Below, one piece after another: positions 1 to 33,937 of a stretch of DNA of 33,937 nt. The DNA comes from a virus, in IMG/VR virus record IMGVR_UViG_3300010882_000004; one strand, given 5' to 3'. Position numbers and translations under genes: made by a program. Below the pieces are notes generated by a model that was given only the letters and a program-made list of their open reading frames with translations, did no database searches and was not told the origin of the DNA. Numbering within the stretch: the stretch's first letter is position 1; each line of letters opens with the position of its first letter.

Positions 1-123
1 AGCACCTTGAAAACTGAATACTGCATAGATGGAAAGGTGGTTCTCATGTTTAGGTTTTCTAAAGAGGACTGGATACTGTTTATTGTCTGGACGCTAATAT
101 GCGTTGCACTCAACCAGTTGGTC
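1..123. repeat. Terminal direct repeat copy A (identical to 33815..33937)
   Basis: Read base by base. The 123 nt from agcaccttgaaaactg to caaccagttggtc are identical at both window ends. Confidence 0.97.
8..29 (+). repeat. 22-bp element TGAAAACTGAATACTGCATAGA, left arm of an inverted repeat (also present at 33822..33843)
   Basis: Its reverse complement matches 566..587 at 21 of 22 positions. It ends 16 nt upstream of ATG 46. Confidence 0.9.
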
Positions 124-144
124 GGTTATCTATTCTTTAGGTAA
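46..144 (+). CDS. Small hydrophobic peptide, 32 aa (MFRFSKEDWILFIVWTLICVALNQLVGYLFFR)
   Basis: Below the ORF-track cutoff. Strong SD GGAAAGGTGG at 31..40, five nt before the ATG. One predicted TM helix. First ORF downstream of the rightward switch promoter. Overlaps the 3' end of 126..557 by 19 nt. Confidence 0.35.
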   Translation: MFRFSKEDWILFIVWTLICVALNQLVGYLFFR

Positions 145-557
145 TCAATAATCTGGTTGAGCGCAGCCGAGGCTGCGAGTGTGCCCAAAGCGATGGACCA
201 ATTGAACCGTTGAGTCGCCCTTAAGCGGTCAATTGATTCCTGCTCCTGTCTCGCGATTTCGTCAAAGTACGTTCGGGCTTTCGAGGAGATGCCGCGTATG
301 ACAACGTCGCCTTCTTTTGTGATCTCGAACAGCTCTTTGGGTATAAACCCTTGCTCGATGAGGTCTTGGAATAGACCGATAAAGGCATAAGCCTCATCGT
401 TAGGCATTTCGCTCACTGGTATTGGCACAGCGAGAGTCCCATTCCTTTCGTGATTGCATAAATCACGAACCAGGTCTTCCATCTGACTGTTGACTCGTTC
501 AATAGGCACACCAACCACCTTGCTTCTTCGATGGATGACAAAGACTCCAAACCTCAT
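126..557 (-). CDS. Hypothetical protein with a winged-helix-like core and C-terminal TM anchor (possible superinfection-exclusion or immunity accessory)
   Basis: 143-aa ORF. The segment FIGLFQDLIEQGFIPKELFEITKEGDVVIRGISSKARTYF looks wHTH-like. The C-terminal WSIALGTLAASAALNQII is hydrophobic. No SD precedes ATG 557, so it may be leaderless. An alternative GTG at 509 has the SD AAGGTGG. Confidence 0.55.
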   Translation of the reverse strand: MRFGVFVIHRRSKVVGVPIERVNSQMEDLVRDLCNHERNGTLAVPIPVSEMPNDEAYAFIGLFQDLIEQGFIPKELFEITKEGDVVIRGISSKARTYFDEIARQEQESIDRLRATQRFNWSIALGTLAASAALNQIIDYLKNR

Positions 558-565
558 TCTATCAG

Positions 566-587
566 TCTATGCAGTACTCAGTTTTCA
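566..587 (-). repeat. 22-bp element, right arm of the inverted repeat (reads TGAAAACTGAGTACTGCATAGA on the minus strand)
   Basis: 21/22 match to 8..29 in inverted orientation. It ends 8 nt upstream of the minus-strand ATG at 557 and lies 19 nt upstream of the Cro-like start. Confidence 0.9.
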
Positions 588-605
588 CCGACGAAGGGAG
601 AGCAA

Positions 606-821
606 GTGTCAGTAACGCACCCGAATCTTAGAGCAGAGATGGCGAGGTACGGAATTTCACAATCAGCTATCGCCGAGCTTCTCAAAATGACCCCCGAGAA
701 TATACGAGCAAAAATTGCCGGTCGCGTCAAGTTCTCCTATGAGGAAACGCTTGCCATCAAGGATGAGTTCTTCCCCGAGCGACCACTCGAATATCTCTTC
801 GCAACTGAGGAGGAGGAGTGA
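606..821 (+). CDS. Cro-like or antirepressor-like small HTH regulator
   Basis: GTG start 5 nt after the SD AAGGGAG (594..600). HTH-like segment GISQSAIAELLKMTPENIRAKIAG. First substantial rightward gene. Confidence 0.6.
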   Translation: MSVTHPNLRAEMARYGISQSAIAELLKMTPENIRAKIAGRVKFSYEETLAIKDEFFPERPLEYLFATEEEE

Positions 822-1045
822 ACTCTTTTTGCCCAGCCTACATGGAATGCATCAAACAGCTTGAATGGTGGGACGTCGAGCAAGCCAGTCTCTTCGGCAA
901 CGAAAGCAAGCAGTCGGTCAGAGACAGGGCAAACCGTGCGGCCTTTCCTATTCCATCAAGACGTGTGGGTCGTGGACATAAGATCGTGGTCCATCGCGAC
1001 AGTTATCTCGAAGATCTATTCGCAACCAAGGAGGAGGACAACTAA
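818..1045 (+). CDS. Excisionase/MerR-like (HTH_17-type) DNA-binding protein
   Basis: Start overlaps the upstream stop and is preceded by GAGGAGGAGGA. The pattern WDVEQASLFG...IPSRRVGRGHKIVVHRDSYLEDL resembles Xis-type HTH proteins. Confidence 0.5.
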   Translation: MNSFCPAYMECIKQLEWWDVEQASLFGNESKQSVRDRANRAAFPIPSRRVGRGHKIVVHRDSYLEDLFATKEEDN

Positions 1046-1116
1046 TGGACCCCTACATCGCACTCATCATGCTCATTGTAACCGTCGCATTCGTAGCGAA
1101 CATATATTCGCAGTAG
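1045..1116 (+). CDS. Tiny hydrophobic peptide, 23 aa (MDPYIALIMLIVTVAFVANIYSQ)
   Basis: Below the track cutoff. TAATG stop-start overlap. SD AAGGAGGAGGA lies 6 nt upstream. Confidence 0.3.
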   Translation: MDPYIALIMLIVTVAFVANIYSQ

Positions 1117-1128
1117 TCGGGAATCGAA

Positions 1129-1770
1129 ATGCCACTAATCGACTTAACGGGTCAGAAGTTCGGAGAACTCACGGTTTTGGAACGTGCCGGATCAACACGA
1201 TACAGCGGTAACGCCCGATGGTTATGTCGGTGCAAGTGCGGATCGGTTATTAAAGTTGGGTCAGGTGAGTTGCGTTCTGGACACTCGAAATCTTGCGGGT
1301 GCTCGCGACCCAATCGTGGGTGCAGAGGCGGACACAGTGACGACCCCCTCGGCTATATCAACCATCGTATATATCGAATTTTTTCAGGTATGCATAAAAG
1401 GTGCTCGAACAGTAACGAACAAGCCTACAAAAATTATGGTGGGCGTGGTATATCGGTCTGCGCCGAGTGGCAGGCTTTCAAGCCCTTCATGGAGTGGTCT
1501 TTGGCGAATGGATATACAGAAGCCCTAACACTGGATCGTATTGACAACGATGGCAACTACGAACCGTCAAATTGTCGATGGGCGACGATAAAAGAACAAG
1601 CGAACAACAGACGGACCAATACTCATATCGAAGTAGATGGAGCCACACATACTATTGCCGAATGGTCAGAAAAAACGGGAATTTGCGCGAGCACAATCAG
1701 GAATCGTCTAGATCGAGGGTGGAGTGGACACGACTCTGTTTCTAGGCAAGTTATGAGCAACCAATGCTAG
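1129..1770 (+). CDS. HNH-like (HNH_3-type) DNA-binding or homing-endonuclease-like protein
   Basis: N-terminal Cys cluster CRCKCG...CGC. Motif LDRIDNDGNYEPSNCRWATIKEQANNR. C-terminal HTH-like TIAEWSEKTGICASTIRNRLDRGWS. Partly low GC. Confidence 0.6.
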   Translation: MPLIDLTGQKFGELTVLERAGSTRYSGNARWLCRCKCGSVIKVGSGELRSGHSKSCGCSRPNRGCRGGHSDDPLGYINHRIYRIFSGMHKRCSNSNEQAYKNYGGRGISVCAEWQAFKPFMEWSLANGYTEALTLDRIDNDGNYEPSNCRWATIKEQANNRRTNTHIEVDGATHTIAEWSEKTGICASTIRNRLDRGWSGHDSVSRQVMSNQC

Positions 1771-29767: not shown

Positions 29768-29940
29768 AACAAGCAAGCCACCAGACAGGGAGCGATGCTG
29801 TATAGCGCTACCACACGGCTCACGACCGAGCCAGGACAAGACCCCGCAAGTCGTCCCGATCTGTATAAACCTATACCAAGGTAGAGAATATGGGCAGCGG
29901 AGTGGAGGGAAACTAACGGCACTTTTTGCACCATTTTCGT

Positions 29941-30151
29941 GTGCTCAAATGTGCTCTGGGGTGTCTAAATGTGCTCAAATGTGCAGTAAAAGTGAGAAAG
30001 CGTCAGAAAGCGAACCTATATCGACCTGCGGTTTTGCTGAAAAAAGTGGAGCCAGCCGGGGGACTCGAAACCTGTAGAGAAAATGGTTTGACCTGCGTTT
30101 ATAGTCCCTCCATGTGCTCGGATGTGCTTGAAGTGTCGGAAAGTGTCGGAA
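29941..30151. other. Candidate attP: arm-type repeats flanking a tRNA 3'-end-like core
   Basis: ATGTGC occurs five times in direct orientation (29949, 29969, 29979, 30112, 30122). GTGCTCAAATGTGC x2. AAGTGTCGGA x2 in tandem (30131..30150). Core at 30047..30069. Adjacent to int. Confidence 0.6.
30047..30069 (-). other. tRNA 3'-end-like segment (T-loop, T-stem, acceptor strand, discriminator and CCA); probable att core
   Basis: The minus strand reads TTCGAGT CCCCC GGCTGGC T CCA. Upstream bases do not complete a T-stem, so this is a fragment and not a gene. Confidence 0.5.
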
Positions 30152-30163
30152 AGCGAGACAACT

Positions 30164-31282
30164 TTAGACACCCGATGCACGTAATATCTGCGATATTTCG
30201 GACATATATTTCACCTGCATGGACCGGGTCGTCTTCACGTATTTGTTGAGTGTGGTCGCAGGGTTGGTATGTCCGAGCCATGCCGCAAGCGTCGTGTAAT
30301 CAATATCTGCGTTGACGCACGCCGTGGCAAACGAGTGGCGCATGGAAAAGATCGTGATAGCTGGAAGCTCATTGCGATCCCTGAAACGATGAAGCATATC
30401 CCTCGCGGCATTCGGACTCATTCGCCGACCAAAGGTATTGACGCATACAGGAGCGTTGACGATGACGTTTTTCGACCCGTACCTGGCTTGATGATTCGCA
30501 AGAAGCGCTGTAAGCCGCTTTACGGCATAATCGTTCATCGGGATAGTCCGATATGACCCTCCCGTCTTTAGAGGGGTCAGAGTAGCCCCACCTTTCTTGT
30601 ACGTGTACGTTTGGCGCACACGTATCTCCCGCGCATCGAGGTTGACGTCACACCAGTCCAGTCCGAGTATCTCTCCCTTGCGCAATCCAAAACACAAACC
30701 AAGCAACACGACAGGCTCAATTACGTGGTCTCTTACTGCGTCAAGCACCTGCGCGTGCTCATCAAACGTTGCTAGCACCACCCCGTAAGCGTCTGGCTCA
30801 GTCGGCTGGGTGTCTGGATAGGCAAACCTACCGCTTGCGACATTTTCCGTTACAAGTCCAAGCCCTTGGGCAGATCCCAGAACAGAACGCAACGTCTCCC
30901 GCGTGTTGGTGCCTACCTTGCGTGTCGGTAACTCGTTGAGCAGCTGCTGCACGTGCATACGTGTGAGCTTGCCTATCTCGATATTGCCGATACCCTTCTC
31001 GGCGTCTACGATACGTTTGACATCGCGTCTGTATCCGTCAAGGGTCGTTCCGCGCAGATTCTTCTTATCGGCCCAAAAGAACTGCTCGATAAACTCCGAT
31101 ACCGTGATGCGGTCGGATAGCCCTTTGAGGGCGTCGCGCTTGCGCTCCTGTGTGTTTCCCCAGATAACCGCTTGCTCGTAGGTTTCGCAGACTTTGCTGA
31201 CCTTATCCGATCTACCGTCGAGTTTCTTTCCGATGACGACGAATACGCGGTACTTTCCATCTTCACGTTTCTTTATGTGCAT
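30164..31282 (-). CDS. int: Tyrosine-type site-specific integrase
   Basis: Catalytic-type motifs GLRKGE, MRHSFAT, WLGHTN and LNKYV. 372 aa. Confidence 0.9.
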   Translation of the reverse strand: MHIKKREDGKYRVFVVIGKKLDGRSDKVSKVCETYEQAVIWGNTQERKRDALKGLSDRITVSEFIEQFFWADKKNLRGTTLDGYRRDVKRIVDAEKGIGNIEIGKLTRMHVQQLLNELPTRKVGTNTRETLRSVLGSAQGLGLVTENVASGRFAYPDTQPTEPDAYGVVLATFDEHAQVLDAVRDHVIEPVVLLGLCFGLRKGEILGLDWCDVNLDAREIRVRQTYTYKKGGATLTPLKTGGSYRTIPMNDYAVKRLTALLANHQARYGSKNVIVNAPVCVNTFGRRMSPNAARDMLHRFRDRNELPAITIFSMRHSFATACVNADIDYTTLAAWLGHTNPATTLNKYVKTTRSMQVKYMSEISQILRASGV

Positions 31283-31365
31283 GGCATGCCTTACCTGCCT
31301 TTTGTTCGGGGGGAATCGTTTTGCGAAGGTCGAGACACTCAGTTGTGGCGGGGCGCTTCGATGTT

Positions 31366-31566
31366 TTAATCCCCATCCTCAAGCAGATCCTCCATGCTCA
31401 CACCGAGAGCGCGGGAGAGTGGCAGAGCGCGTTCGATCGAGATCCCATTCAGTCGCACTCTGCCCTGCTCGTAGTCTTGTATCGTGCGCACCGATATACC
31501 GCTCTCCACTGCAAGCCCTGACTGCGAGAGTCCGGCTTCCTTGCGCAATTCCTGAAGACGGTTCAT
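31366..31566 (-). CDS. XRE/Cro-C1-family HTH regulator, 66 aa
   Basis: Motif LRKEAGLSQSGLAVESGISVRTIQDYEQG. Its start overlaps the stop of the upstream peptide ORF (ATGA). Confidence 0.8.
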   Translation of the reverse strand: MNRLQELRKEAGLSQSGLAVESGISVRTIQDYEQGRVRLNGISIERALPLSRALGVSMEDLLEDGD

Positions 31567-31658
31567 CTTTTGTTCCTCTTTGTACCCAGATACAGATTGA
31601 TCAGTGAGATGGCTAAGGATATCAAAGAGATTATCAGTACTAGTGTCAGCTTGTCCAT
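31563..31658 (-). CDS. Small membrane peptide, 31 aa (MDKLTLVLIISLISLAISLINLYLGTKRNKR)
   Basis: Below the track cutoff. SD AAGGAGG lies 7 nt upstream. One TM helix plus a basic tail. Translationally coupled to the XRE gene. Confidence 0.5.
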   Translation of the reverse strand: MDKLTLVLIISLISLAISLINLYLGTKRNKR

Positions 31659-31726
31659 TTCATTTCCTCCTTGGTGGTATACTTACATTGTCTGGGGCTT
31701 GGGGAGCCTTTCAGCTCCCCTTGCTC

Positions 31727-31846
31727 CTAGGTGTCCTCACTTTCGTCATCCTCATCTTTACCATCGAGAATGTCTCTTGCGAGGCTTGCTACTGCTACCG
31801 CCAATTGCGCCAGTGCGGTTGCGAGTAGCACGTCGTCTCTTTCCAT
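31727..31846 (-). CDS. Small peptide, 39 aa (MERDDVLLATALAQLAVAVASLARDILDGKDEDDESEDT)
   Basis: Below the track cutoff. SD AAGGAGGTGA upstream. Hydrophobic helix plus an acidic tail. Followed by the hairpin GGGGAGC-TGAAAG-GCTCCCC. Confidence 0.5.
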   Translation of the reverse strand: MERDDVLLATALAQLAVAVASLARDILDGKDEDDESEDT

Positions 31847-31878
31847 CGCATCACCTCCTTTCAAGTTCCTACTCTAAT

Positions 31879-31907
31879 AGTATACGATAATACTCGTATA
31901 ATGTCAA
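31879..31907 (-). promoter_or_regulatory. Near-consensus sigma-70 promoter with an embedded palindromic operator
   Basis: The minus strand reads TTGACA, 17 nt, TATACT. The palindrome TATACGA-N6-TCGTATA (31881..31900) spans the spacer and the -10 element. Confidence 0.7.
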
Positions 31908-31932
31908 GTAGTTTAGGAGGTTTTTCTCAATT

Positions 31933-32835
31933 CTAGCTCCTTCTTCGTTTCTCTATTTCGTGCAAAGACTCCACTCCCATTTTCCTTAATAACCCTTCTC
32001 TTGGAATGGAGTCAATACGCCTCAGGCACCCGTCGACAGACCTGCGTATCGTGCCTCGCAGATGCCTGCTGTCACTCTCACTCAGGAAGATATCCATATC
32101 ATCGAGGATATCGACGAAGCTGAGGTTGCCCTGCGAAAAACGTGCGCAATACAACCTTTCATCGTGCGCACAGATGTTGCGTGCCGCATTTATATTGTCC
32201 AGCGCATCGAGAACCTGTGGCGATCCGATTCTCCACTTGCTCACATTATCCATGCGATATCGGTCGCTGAAGTCCTGCGCTATCCTCTTGCGGAGATGCT
32301 CCTTTTGGAAACTGAAAAGCCTGAGTGTCTGTCCGAACGCCATAGAGTTTGCCAGAACCCAGATCGGAACCGCACCGTACTTTGATTGATAGTGTTCGAT
32401 GTAGGGTCTACGGTTCTTGTTGTTCAGTATTGAGGTCAGATTATCTATCAGGCGATTTACCTGCCCTTGATAGTTCCCGTCGTCGCGGTATGTCGATGGG
32501 TCGAGGTAGAAGCTGGTCAAGCCATCGTTTGCCTCCGCGAGACGGTAGGAAACCGTCGTCCTCATATATGCCTCTATGATAGCCGTATATCTGAAGAGAT
32601 CCATGCGAAGAGAGCGATCGAACAGGAACAACCTGTGGATTTCCTTGAATGCCGTTCCCCGCCTGAACTCATCGCCGGTTGCTGTCGTTCGGTATACGAA
32701 GAAGGATTTATAGCCGTTTACGACGGCATAGTAGCCCTCGCGCTGCAAGACGGCAGAGGTTTCGTTGTCGGTTCTCACCCCACGGCTCTCAAGCAATTCG
32801 ACCTGTTCCTTTATCGTGAGGAACTGCTTCTCCAT
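31933..32835 (-). CDS. Abi_2 (AbiD/AbiF-like) HEPN-domain abortive infection protein
   Basis: Overall Abi_2-like layout. R-x4-H motif RNICAH at 32164..32181. ATG 32835 chosen because the track GTG 32856 lies inside the upstream terminator T run. Confidence 0.7.
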   Translation of the reverse strand: MEKQFLTIKEQVELLESRGVRTDNETSAVLQREGYYAVVNGYKSFFVYRTTATGDEFRRGTAFKEIHRLFLFDRSLRMDLFRYTAIIEAYMRTTVSYRLAEANDGLTSFYLDPSTYRDDGNYQGQVNRLIDNLTSILNNKNRRPYIEHYQSKYGAVPIWVLANSMAFGQTLRLFSFQKEHLRKRIAQDFSDRYRMDNVSKWRIGSPQVLDALDNINAARNICAHDERLYCARFSQGNLSFVDILDDMDIFLSESDSRHLRGTIRRSVDGCLRRIDSIPREGLLRKMGVESLHEIEKRRRS

Positions 32836-32848
32836 GACGGTGACCCCT

Positions 32849-32877
32849 AAAACCACAAAAGGCGCAACGCGCCTTCT
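32849..32877 (-). terminator. Rho-independent terminator between the repressor and Abi genes
   Basis: The minus strand reads AAGGCGC GTT GCGCCTT followed by TTGTGGTTTT. Confidence 0.65.
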
Positions 32878-32997
32878 GGGGGTTGCTCCGATATTGCATT
32901 CGTCACAACCGCATCACATCCATTATGATACACCGATACTCCCATACTGTACAGTTTCTCCATCTCCTAATACCGATAATCGAACGGCTTTTCCTCT

Positions 32998-33654
32998 CTA
33001 AAACGCAGTCAGATAGTCGAACGGTGGGGTGTACCACACGACCGGACCGCGAATCACGATATTGGTGCAGTCTTCATCGGCGCACTTGTAGACATAGGAC
33101 TCATAGGTAGGATCGGTGCTATCAGGTATCAGCTCGACACCTCTATCCAGTATCCTCACCCGCTTGATAAGCCCCTCGGAGCCGTCTACGTTTACCAGTG
33201 CGATATCTCCGGTGGCAACCTGCCCCCCAAAGTCCACGAGGGCATACGTGCCGTCTGGGAGCACCTTGTCCATCGAGGTGCCGTTTACCCGCACGAGCTT
33301 GGCATTGGGATACTTCTTGCCCATAGCGACCGGTACAGGGTGTGTGAGGTCATCTACCGGCAGTTCCTCGTTAGGCACTCCGGCTGATACCGATAACACG
33401 ATGGGGAGATCGATGAATTCTGGATCGACATTATCGATCCTTCGGATACGCTTTCGAGCTAGAGATGATGGATCAAGATCCAGTGCTTTACACATGGCGA
33501 GAACCGTGTCTACACTTTTACCTTCGAAGCCGTTGTTAAGAATTGAATAAATAGTTGTCGGTGGAACACCTATTACCTCAGAGAACTGTCGAACACTCTT
33601 ATATCTTTCGAGGATAATCGCTCGCACTCGATCTTCTAATCGGTTTTCGTACAT
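32998..33654 (-). CDS. CI/LexA-like repressor (N-terminal HTH, C-terminal S24 autopeptidase)
   Basis: HTH segment SVRQFSEVIGVPPTTIYSILNN. Ser motif NGTSMDKVLPDG. Lys motif GLIKRV. SD GGAGGAAAG upstream. Confidence 0.85.
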   Translation of the reverse strand: MYENRLEDRVRAIILERYKSVRQFSEVIGVPPTTIYSILNNGFEGKSVDTVLAMCKALDLDPSSLARKRIRRIDNVDPEFIDLPIVLSVSAGVPNEELPVDDLTHPVPVAMGKKYPNAKLVRVNGTSMDKVLPDGTYALVDFGGQVATGDIALVNVDGSEGLIKRVRILDRGVELIPDSTDPTYESYVYKCADEDCTNIVIRGPVVWYTPPFDYLTAF

Positions 33655-33706
33655 CTTTCCTCCAATACATTACGAGAAAGTAACAATTCGCTATTCTATA
33701 CGAAAT

Positions 33707-33735
33707 ATTATAAATTATTTGCTATTTCGTGTTGA
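33707..33735 (-). promoter_or_regulatory. Candidate repressor (leftward) promoter
   Basis: The minus strand reads TCAACA, 17 nt, TATAAT. Its -35 is back to back with the rightward -35. Flanked by the 8-bp inverted repeat ACGAAATA / TATTTCGT. Confidence 0.55.
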
Positions 33736-33760
33736 CAGATTACGTAATCTCGCTTACTGT
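33732..33760 (+). promoter_or_regulatory. Candidate rightward early promoter
   Basis: TTGACA, 17 nt, TACTGT. The spacer contains the operator palindrome. Confidence 0.55.
33738..33749. promoter_or_regulatory. Operator candidate O1: perfect 12-bp palindrome GATTACGTAATC
   Basis: Self-complementary. Lies in the promoter spacer. Extends to AGATTACGTAATCTCGC. Confidence 0.6.
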
Positions 33761-33769
33761 CAGTAGTAG

Positions 33770-33782
33770 GCGAGATTACGTA
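33770..33782. promoter_or_regulatory. Operator candidate O2: GCGAGATTACGTA (inverted copy of the O1 flank)
   Basis: 13-nt match to the reverse complement of the extended O1. Lies just downstream of the -10 element. Confidence 0.5.
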
Positions 33783-33814
33783 CACATCTGGTAATATGCG
33801 AAATCTCATAAAAG

Positions 33815-33937
33815 AGCACCTTGAAAACTGAATACTGCATAGATGGAAAGGTGGTTCTCATGTTTAGGTTTTCTAAAGAGGACTGGATACTGTTTATTGT
33901 CTGGACGCTAATATGCGTTGCACTCAACCAGTTGGTC
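33815..33937. repeat. Terminal direct repeat copy B (identical to 1..123)
   Basis: Same 123-nt string as 1..123. It lies in the immunity region rather than near terS, so it is more likely a circular-assembly overlap than a physical DTR. Confidence 0.97.

Follow-up and report, generated by a model that had tools for sequence, protein, structure and literature searches.

The virus record IMGVR_UViG_3300010882_000004, the stretch of 33,937 nucleotides (nt) analyzed here and referred to as the window, is a circular contig in which positions 1..123 recur as 33815..33937, and the genome measures 33,814 base pairs (bp). Its immunity region contains a CI-type repressor gene and a Cro-like gene. Rightward from the candidate early promoter, PR, the order is a 32-residue open reading frame (ORF32), a minus-strand ORF, the Cro-like gene, ORF75 and an HNH endonuclease. 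ORF32 and the minus-strand ORF converge, and the pair is bracketed by two inward-pointing copies of a 22-bp sequence, here called the left and right arms. This cassette between PR and cro, and the inverted repeat that bounds it, are the subject of this report.

The 22-mer TGAAAACTGAATACTGCATAGA lies at 8..29 and its inverted copy at 566..587. The two match at 21 of 22 positions, as an earlier note on this DNA had stated, and the sole difference is A18 against the complement of C577. The match continues inward to 29 nt at 86% identity (25/29), and this longer pair, 8..36 and 559..587, is the best inverted repeat in the circular genome. The repeat is real and not a product of chance: 0 of 100 shuffles reproduced its pattern, and a non-overlapping inverted pair of 22-mers of any sequence, with at most one mismatch, arose in 3 of 1000 shuffled genomes. 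A further occurrence listed in the earlier note, at 33822..33843, is present as sequence but is the same DNA as 8..29, read again through the contig overlap, and not a separate copy. The left arm lies ~55 nt downstream of the PR start and 16 nt before the ATG of ORF32, and it is made of three tandem heptads, TGAAAAC, TGAATAC and TGCATAG. Searched as an exact 22-mer, the variable position written as R, the repeat has no match elsewhere in IMG/VR, the JGI metagenome contigs or 185,579 GTDB genomes. Compared by eye with cre/LacI-type, extracytoplasmic function (ECF) sigma and sporulation-sigma sites, the arm gives no convincing match.

The arms are the outermost part of a longer correspondence. 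Comparison of 1..150 on the plus strand with the reverse complement of 121..600 yields three matches that occur in the same order in both units: the arm (25/29; 8..36 with 587..559), the Shine-Dalgarno (SD) sequence (9/9; 34..42 with 521..513) and the last codons (21/28; 105..132 with 165..138). The SD of ORF32 is strong (AAGGTGG, 5 nt before the ATG), and the ORF shares its last 19 nt, 126..144, with the convergent gene, both as first described. ORF32 and the minus-strand gene, whose likely product has 127 amino acids (aa), each end in an arginine codon followed by TAA, and the codon differences between them are synonymous or conservative (GCA/GCG, TAT/TAC, AGG/AGA, L/I, V/I). Such differences are expected of paralogous genes drifting apart in sequence rather than of a conserved hairpin. 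The peptide encoded by ORF32 aligns with the tail of the 127-aa protein (ALNQLVGYL against ALNQIIDYL; expect value, E, 0.003). It also matches, over 22 residues, the hydrophobic tail of P0005, a homologue of the 127-aa protein encoded on an unrelated contig (E 8e-4), so the similarity of ORF32 to its neighbor is not a mere by-product of a local hairpin. Within the 127-aa protein family, the C-terminal helix is the part to which ORF32 corresponds as a mini-paralogue. Because of the three collinear matches and the similarity between ORF32 and the protein tail, the cassette is best described as a tail-to-tail inverted duplication of one unit consisting of control element, SD and ORF.

From the left unit, 37 nt of leader between arm and SD have disappeared along with the whole N-terminal domain, and the best-kept part of the duplication is the 22-bp repeat. 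The SD, frame and stop of ORF32 are all intact. Its Kyte-Doolittle (KD) hydropathy, KD(19), is 2.03, which makes it a small hydrophobic peptide, a feature shared with type I toxins. Where the two ORFs meet, two strong hairpins stand side by side, one at 109..161 and a GC-rich one at 162..177, with no U-tract on either strand. The hairpins within 105..177 may stabilize or pause transcripts rather than terminate them.

Two lines of evidence indicate that the arm has been kept while its surroundings changed. Firstly, the arm is 95% identical (21/22) between the two units, against ~75% for the co-duplicated coding part; at 25% neutral divergence, the calculated probability of at most one change in 22 nt is ~0.015. 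Secondly, a related sequence stands in front of the distant homologue. On the 684-bp contig that encodes P0005, the 90-nt region upstream of the gene holds TGACAGCTGAATAAGAGATAGACTGGTAG, which matches the right arm and the next 7 nt at 21 of 29 positions, ungapped. When the two intergenic regions are aligned locally, the top alignment starts with base one of the arm, and its score was equalled by 10 of 5000 shuffles (p ~0.002) and by 3 of 3000 random genome segments. This match points to a conserved cis-regulatory site. The positions shared by all three copies, the two arms and that of the P0005 contig, are TGAnAnCTGAnTAnnnnATAGAnnGnnAG, and the motif upstream of the family genes can be written TGAnAnCTGAnTA....ATAGA. 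The divergent neighbors of the two loci, when compared, gave E 0.042 and no match, so clear homology is confined to the 127-aa family. Since no other protein is clearly homologous between the loci, the 127-aa protein itself would be the most economical candidate for binding the arm. The arm motif is absent from every fetched relative that lacks the cassette. Within the window, a possible degenerate copy, CGAAAACCGATTAGAAGATCGAGTGCGAG, lies at 33621..33649 on the minus strand over CI codons 2-11 and agrees at 15 of the 18 positions shared by the three good copies. This match is weak and post hoc, with 0.05 of its type expected genome-wide. Measured from the divergent CI and PR promoters, the degenerate copy and the left arm both lie ~50-55 nt downstream.

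The minus-strand gene had been read as a 143-aa ORF that starts at ATG 557 without an SD, may be leaderless, and has the right arm 8 nt upstream. We prefer a start at GTG 509, which gives 127 aa, on four grounds. GTG 509 is preceded at 5-nt spacing by AAGGTGGTT, the identical nine bases of the ORF32 SD. The 127-aa form is the one called in other assemblies (P0002). The distant homologue aligns from the 127-aa N-terminus, with M1, E4, R5 and N7 invariant. Finally, a candidate extended -10 element, TGATAGAAT, overlaps ATG 557. A leaderless messenger RNA (mRNA) starting at ATG 557 is thus unlikely and probably wrong, and the right arm lies 56 nt upstream of the likely start. The right arm covers the -35 region and spacer of this candidate leftward promoter. 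No usable -10 follows the left arm in a relaxed scan, and a strict sigma-70 scan (-35 and -10 elements at 16-18 bp) found none within or beside the arms in 1..1200. A model in which each arm is a self-contained sigma-70 promoter was rejected, since the strict scan was empty and the relaxed scan places a -10 after the right arm alone. No sigma-70-like promoter lies directly upstream of cro and no intrinsic terminator was found in 1..1200, which makes read-through from PR across the left arm plausible. The earlier statement that PR must transcribe through the cassette to reach cro is reasonable on these grounds, with its "must" softened to "plausibly does." Table 1 lists the features of the region.

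Table 1. Coordinates of the repeat, the cassette and neighboring features in the window.
Feature	Position	Strand	Remarks
Left arm	8..36	+	22-mer 8..29; match reaches 36; directly ahead of ORF32 SD
ORF32	46..144	+	32-residue hydrophobic peptide; SD AAGGTGGTT at 34..42
Local inverted repeat at ORF junction	105..132 / 138..165 (105..165)		21/28; made by paralogous C-terminal codons; folds as hairpin without U-tract
127-aa gene	126..509	-	GTG 509 start; SD AAGGTGGTT at 513..521; short form of 143-aa ORF (126..557)
Candidate extended -10 TGATAGAAT	564..556	-	Consensus match only; overlaps ATG 557; just inside right arm
Right arm	559..587	-	22-mer 566..587; match reaches 559; ends 18 nt before cro GTG 606
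Cro-like gene	606..821	+	GTG 606 start; homologues begin M(F/K)..PNLRAEM
Integrase gene	30164..31282	-	
Small helix-turn-helix (HTH) gene and Abi_2 gene	31933..32856	-	
CI-type repressor	32998..33654	-	HTH_3 and Peptidase_S24
CI promoter	33735..33707	-	TCAACA-17-TATAAT; rated good
PR candidate	33732..33760	+	TTGACA-17-TACTGT
CI operator palindrome AGATTACGTAATCT	33737..33750		Within PR spacer; half-repeat at 33770..33782
Left arm in contig overlap	33822..33843	+	Seen again in circular-contig overlap; not a third copy

In the nearest relative by CI (58% identity; Cro 46%), the CI and Cro genes are separated by a gap of 141 bp with no gene in it. Because the two genes are adjacent there, the block between PR and cro is an accessory insert, and the view that it interrupts the usual adjacency of CI and Cro holds. 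So does the broader description of a shared upstream element ahead of two convergent, 3'-overlapping ORFs inside such a cassette. The earlier note had further proposed that relatives be compared for presence or absence of 8..587 with clean edges at the repeats. The block is indeed absent from the nearest relative, and the leader similarity that might mark its edges is not significant. An apparent "empty site" in the cro leader of the relative (AGCACC...GAC) was discarded for the same reason, since alignment and BLAST support homology inside cro alone. A DNA search of INPHARED phages with 1..1100 gave no match, and no CI relatives were found in IMG/VR. Among the Cro-homologue loci recovered (L014-L020), other small minus-strand genes precede cro, and the inverted repeats and the arm motif are absent. 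In the low-GC members of this set (L014..L019), the repressor and the Cro-like gene are also set apart by accessory genes (AntA/ANT, a 105-aa ORF), and a small Cys-rich minus-strand ORF of 74-85 aa lies immediately before cro; a small divergent gene in front of the Cro-like gene is thus a recurring arrangement in this family.

The 127-aa protein has one distant homologue, P0005 (122 aa), which is 29% identical at E 1.6e-6 and 31% identical in the pairwise family alignment. Protein-pattern scans of IMG/VR, JGI contigs and GTDB genomes, built on the alignment of the two members, confirmed no relatives. An AlphaFold2 model built from the two-sequence alignment has a mean predicted local distance difference test (pLDDT) score of 80.8 and comprises two helices (residues 8-22 and 37-52), a beta hairpin or wing (61-71) and a long helix (76-126); a single-sequence model of the 143-aa form was poor (pLDDT 47). 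Top Foldseek matches in the PDB are non-significant and almost all winged-helix proteins that bind DNA: BusR, RbkR, MarR, DtxR/IdeR/MntR, GntR, the LexA DNA-binding domain and RTP. A fold search of BFVD returned uncharacterized phage proteins alone, none of them significant. The modeled fold is a winged helix that leads into one long helix, hydrophobic at its end, and the protein is a probable DNA-binding protein. The hydropathy of the helix end is ~2.0 on the KD scale in P0005 and ORF32 and weaker, 1.26, in the 127-aa protein, and this segment could be a membrane anchor or an oligomerization helix.

Taken together, these observations suggest that the inverted duplication passed on a protein-binding operator, of which the arms are the two copies, and that these copies link expression of the cassette to early rightward transcription. 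We put this reading at roughly 45%, a little short of even, and among the explanations first offered for the repeat, a duplicated operator or promoter for common control is the best fit to the collinear paralogous units and to the arm upstream of the distant homologue. Under this model, the right unit would be the 127-aa gene, while the left unit would have shrunk to the control element, the identical SD and a 32-residue peptide corresponding to the C-terminal helix. An arm that stays near-identical while the remainder of the duplicate decays would be a functional cis-regulatory site, most likely a protein-binding operator of tandem heptads. On the right it would sit over the -35 region and spacer of the gene's own leftward promoter, and on the left in the PR leader, ahead of ORF32 and cro. 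We infer that a protein binds both sites, the 127-aa protein being the candidate. Occupancy of the left arm would then block or modulate rightward early transcription as a roadblock, possibly with a loop over the 558 bp between the arms, and ORF32, expressed from PR, may antagonize the 127-aa protein through the helix they have in common. The mechanism is drawn from one genome and one short homologous contig.

A more elaborate version makes the cassette a self-contained second switch between PR and cro, a double-negative loop formed by a gene and its own inverted mini-paralogue. In the lysogen, the 127-aa protein would be made leftward and would bind the heptad operator at both arms, which would autoregulate its own promoter and, with the 558-bp loop, also roadblock PR before ORF32 and cro. 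When PR fires, ORF32 would titrate the protein. As a whole, this chain of events is quite unlikely.

Several points weigh against the duplicated-operator reading. With three members of the protein family among ~15 billion proteins, the comparative evidence comes from a single contig of 684 bp, whose end falls short of a possible second arm. The 143/127-aa protein, ORF32 and the family alignment have no match in Pfam, PHROGs, PADLOC or Rfam; a PDB sequence search returned non-significant matches alone (best E 0.77), and the Foldseek matches stand at E 0.17 or higher. The arm lacks the dyad symmetry that the operator of a dimeric winged-helix protein would usually show. The P0005 tail and ORF32 resemble transmembrane segments, and a membrane function in place of DNA binding is possible. 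The identity of the arms could also be due to gene conversion, or to the arms alone having arisen recently.

This last point leads to the alternative that holds up best, although it is unlikely: the duplication is real, but the arms are relics that now have no function of their own, and they owe their identity to recency, gene conversion or chance. The right arm would then be at most part of the promoter region of the 127-aa gene. This would be in keeping with a usable -10 after the right arm alone, with the loss from the left unit of most of the ORF as well as of the 37 nt ahead of its SD, and with the absence of further 22-mer copies from every collection searched. A relic is harder to reconcile with arms that remain at 95% identity beside a co-duplicated coding segment at 75%, and with an element conserved upstream of a homologue that is 29-31% identical. 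ORF32 moreover retains its SD, frame and stop, and its substitutions relative to the paralogue are conservative.

The arms could instead act as RNA, pairing into a 22-bp long-range stem around the cassette, either on RNA read through from PR or on a long leftward RNA, with RNase III-type processing or insulation releasing a cro mRNA with a short leader. A stem of 22 bp, about two helical turns, is in the size class of RNase III substrates, and no terminator lies between PR and cro. The stem is kept in the minimum free energy and centroid folds of 1..640 on both strands (z = -5.0 and -3.5), but any 22-bp inverted repeat would fold in this way, which leaves the folds with no independent weight as evidence. 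The one mismatch would be a G.U pair in minus-strand RNA; in the PR transcript, by contrast, it is A.C, and the likely leftward transcript begins downstream of the right arm and would not contain both arms. What is conserved at the P0005 locus is the primary sequence of one arm, from which no covariation is available, and no Rfam family matches. We regard an RNA role as decidedly improbable.

Just as improbable is a mobile origin, in which the arms are the terminal inverted repeats of a non-autonomous element with passenger genes, a mobile insertion cassette or miniature inverted-repeat transposable element (MITE), that entered the cro leader and was mobilized in trans. The arms are non-palindromic, stand at both ends of an accessory block missing here from the nearest relative, and read 5'-TG...CA-3'; block 1..591 also forms its own unitig in one assembly, which may mean more than one context in the sample. 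However, no transposase is encoded by the cassette or by those phage genes for which Pfam hits are recorded, and the flanks (..CACCT before TG...CA, CCGAC.. after it) give CCT against CCG and no clean target duplication. The searches of IMG/VR, JGI contigs and GTDB revealed no other exact copy of the ends, and a mobile origin would leave the SD and C-terminal paralogy unexplained. The terminal-repeat reading put forward in the earlier note is accordingly weak.

The assemblies bear on whether the cassette inverts. The 100% identical phage is found in assembly ERZ27257304 (MEGAHIT, k = 141), a Logan contig (k = 31) and a JGI contig. In ERZ27257304 the phage is split into unitigs 817..141, 1..591 and 451..957, whose lengths minus three 141-nt overlaps sum to 33,814; the Logan contig spans 1..30069 and the JGI contig 30047..33746. 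All assembled contigs that span the block have one orientation and are 100% identical. Unitig ends recur, over k = 31, 123 and 141, at 0|1, at 591|592 (or 450|451), at 816|817 (or 957|958) and at 33746|33747, and the one at 0|1 does not depend on k. The graph branches at nodes 1..141 and 451..591, whereas inversion at the arms predicts a unitig of 8..587 or 19..576 and 271-bp junction unitigs. Three rearrangements were compared with the unitig ends, namely an inversion, a junction from a circle or tandem (591|1) and a precise deletion of cro (591|817), and none fits all assemblies; for the cro deletion, a GA microhomology would also shift a node. The simplest reading, which the pattern suggests, is that a second variant co-exists with this one: the two share the cassette but have different sequences in cro (592..816) and in the PR/operator segment 33747..33814.

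The phage attachment site (attP) serves as a guide to such ends. Its core, 30047..30069, lies beside the integrase gene and is a 23-bp reverse complement of a transfer RNA 3' end (TGGAGCCAGCCGGGGGACTCGAA). The edges of the core coincide with the ends of two independent contigs, the JGI contig beginning at 30047 and the Logan contig ending at 30069, so unitig ends mark real alternative junctions here. The flanks (29920..30160) carry repeated (A/G)ATGTGCTC and GAAAGTGTCG motifs on both sides, which resemble arm-type sites. No second recombinase, neither resolvase nor invertase, is among the Pfam hits on record for the called genes, although not every ORF was scanned, and the integrase gene is ~3.5 kb away. 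An invertible phase switch, in which site-specific recombination between the arms flips 30..565 and exchanges the ORF read from PR, would suit the geometry of 22-bp inverted arms around a 536-bp segment beside a promoter and the assembly-graph branches near the block, but it is very improbable given the single orientation of every spanning contig, the misfit of the branch nodes and of unitig 1..591, and the lack of any recombinase seen other than the integrase, whose attP core and arm-type repeats are unlike the 22-mer.

The surroundings of the cassette add further detail. The likely CI operators occupy 33737..33782, where AGATTACGTAATCT is a 14-bp palindrome in the PR spacer and a 13-bp inverted partner (TACGTAATCTCGC / GCGAGATTACGTA) lies 15 nt away, and a further rightward extended -10 candidate, TGGTAATAT, lies at 33789..33797. 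On the lysogenic strand, a gene with an Abi_2 (abortive infection) domain lies directly downstream of CI, past an intrinsic terminator-like hairpin at 32878..32856, and the CI relative L009 carries a SNIPE/T5orf172 gene at the corresponding position. Among the early genes, soon after cro and ORF75, the HNH endonuclease (1129..1770, plus strand) belongs to phrog_374 (E 2.5e-71) and has no Pfam match at E up to 0.1.

If the duplicated-operator reading is true, a temperate phage would have placed a further level of control between cro and its early promoter by inverting one gene copy and trimming it, such that a regulator and its antagonist share both an operator and a helix. It would be a compact example of switch components arising by local duplication, and of accessory genes insulated from early lytic transcription. 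If it is not true, the locus still offers a clean case in which a cro leader has received an accessory cassette whose protein family is extremely rare. For now the finding is of modest practical use: a gene start is corrected, and the inversion and transposon readings no longer lead.

Several known systems resemble parts of the locus. In prophage type I toxin-antitoxin loci such as txpA/RatA, bsrG/SR4 and par/Fst, convergent transcripts overlap at their 3' ends. The cassette likewise combines a hydrophobic peptide of ~30 residues, whose SD is strong, with a predicted transcript that converges on it and overlaps it, and a hairpin stands at the common 3' ends. Here, however, the convergent partner is a protein gene to whose tail the peptide is paralogous, the repeats are inverted and so give the same, not complementary, 5' sequence, and no Rfam or PADLOC match was found for the cassette. 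Mobile insertion cassettes and MITEs are bounded by terminal inverted repeats, and they share with the phage block a small, transposase-less form, inverted repeats of ~22 bp and passenger ORFs; the block differs in being single-copy and in having no target duplication, and none of the collections searched holds related ends.

Paired distant operators with DNA looping are known from temperate-phage switches, including lambda OL-OR and the flanking CI sites of coliphage 186. Like these, the phage has the same candidate protein-binding sequence twice, hundreds of bp apart around its lysis-lysogeny region, with one copy at a promoter and one downstream of PR. Unlike them, its arms differ from its own CI operators (AGATTACGTAATCT), are non-palindromic and bracket an accessory cassette, and their binding and looping are predicted properties. 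The modeled 127-aa protein is similar to BusR (PDB 7b5t) in having a three-helix winged helix followed by one long helix, but Foldseek E is 0.17 and identity ~14%, the 127-aa protein lacks a ligand domain, and the end of its helix is hydrophobic and may span a membrane.

In phage P22, the sieB locus encodes an immunity-region prophage accessory protein that is counteracted by a short polypeptide forming part of it, Esc, in a circuit that includes antisense transcription, sas (Ranade and Poteete 1993, summarized in PMC12197685). ORF32 may antagonize the 127-aa protein in a manner reminiscent of SieB/Esc/sas. Esc, in contrast, is made from the sieB gene itself, whereas the short form here is a separate, inverted paralogous ORF, and SieB has no sequence similarity to the cassette proteins. 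The locus varies known themes, among them the duplicated operator, the antagonist that is a truncated paralogue and the accessory cassette of an immunity region, with an extremely rare protein family.

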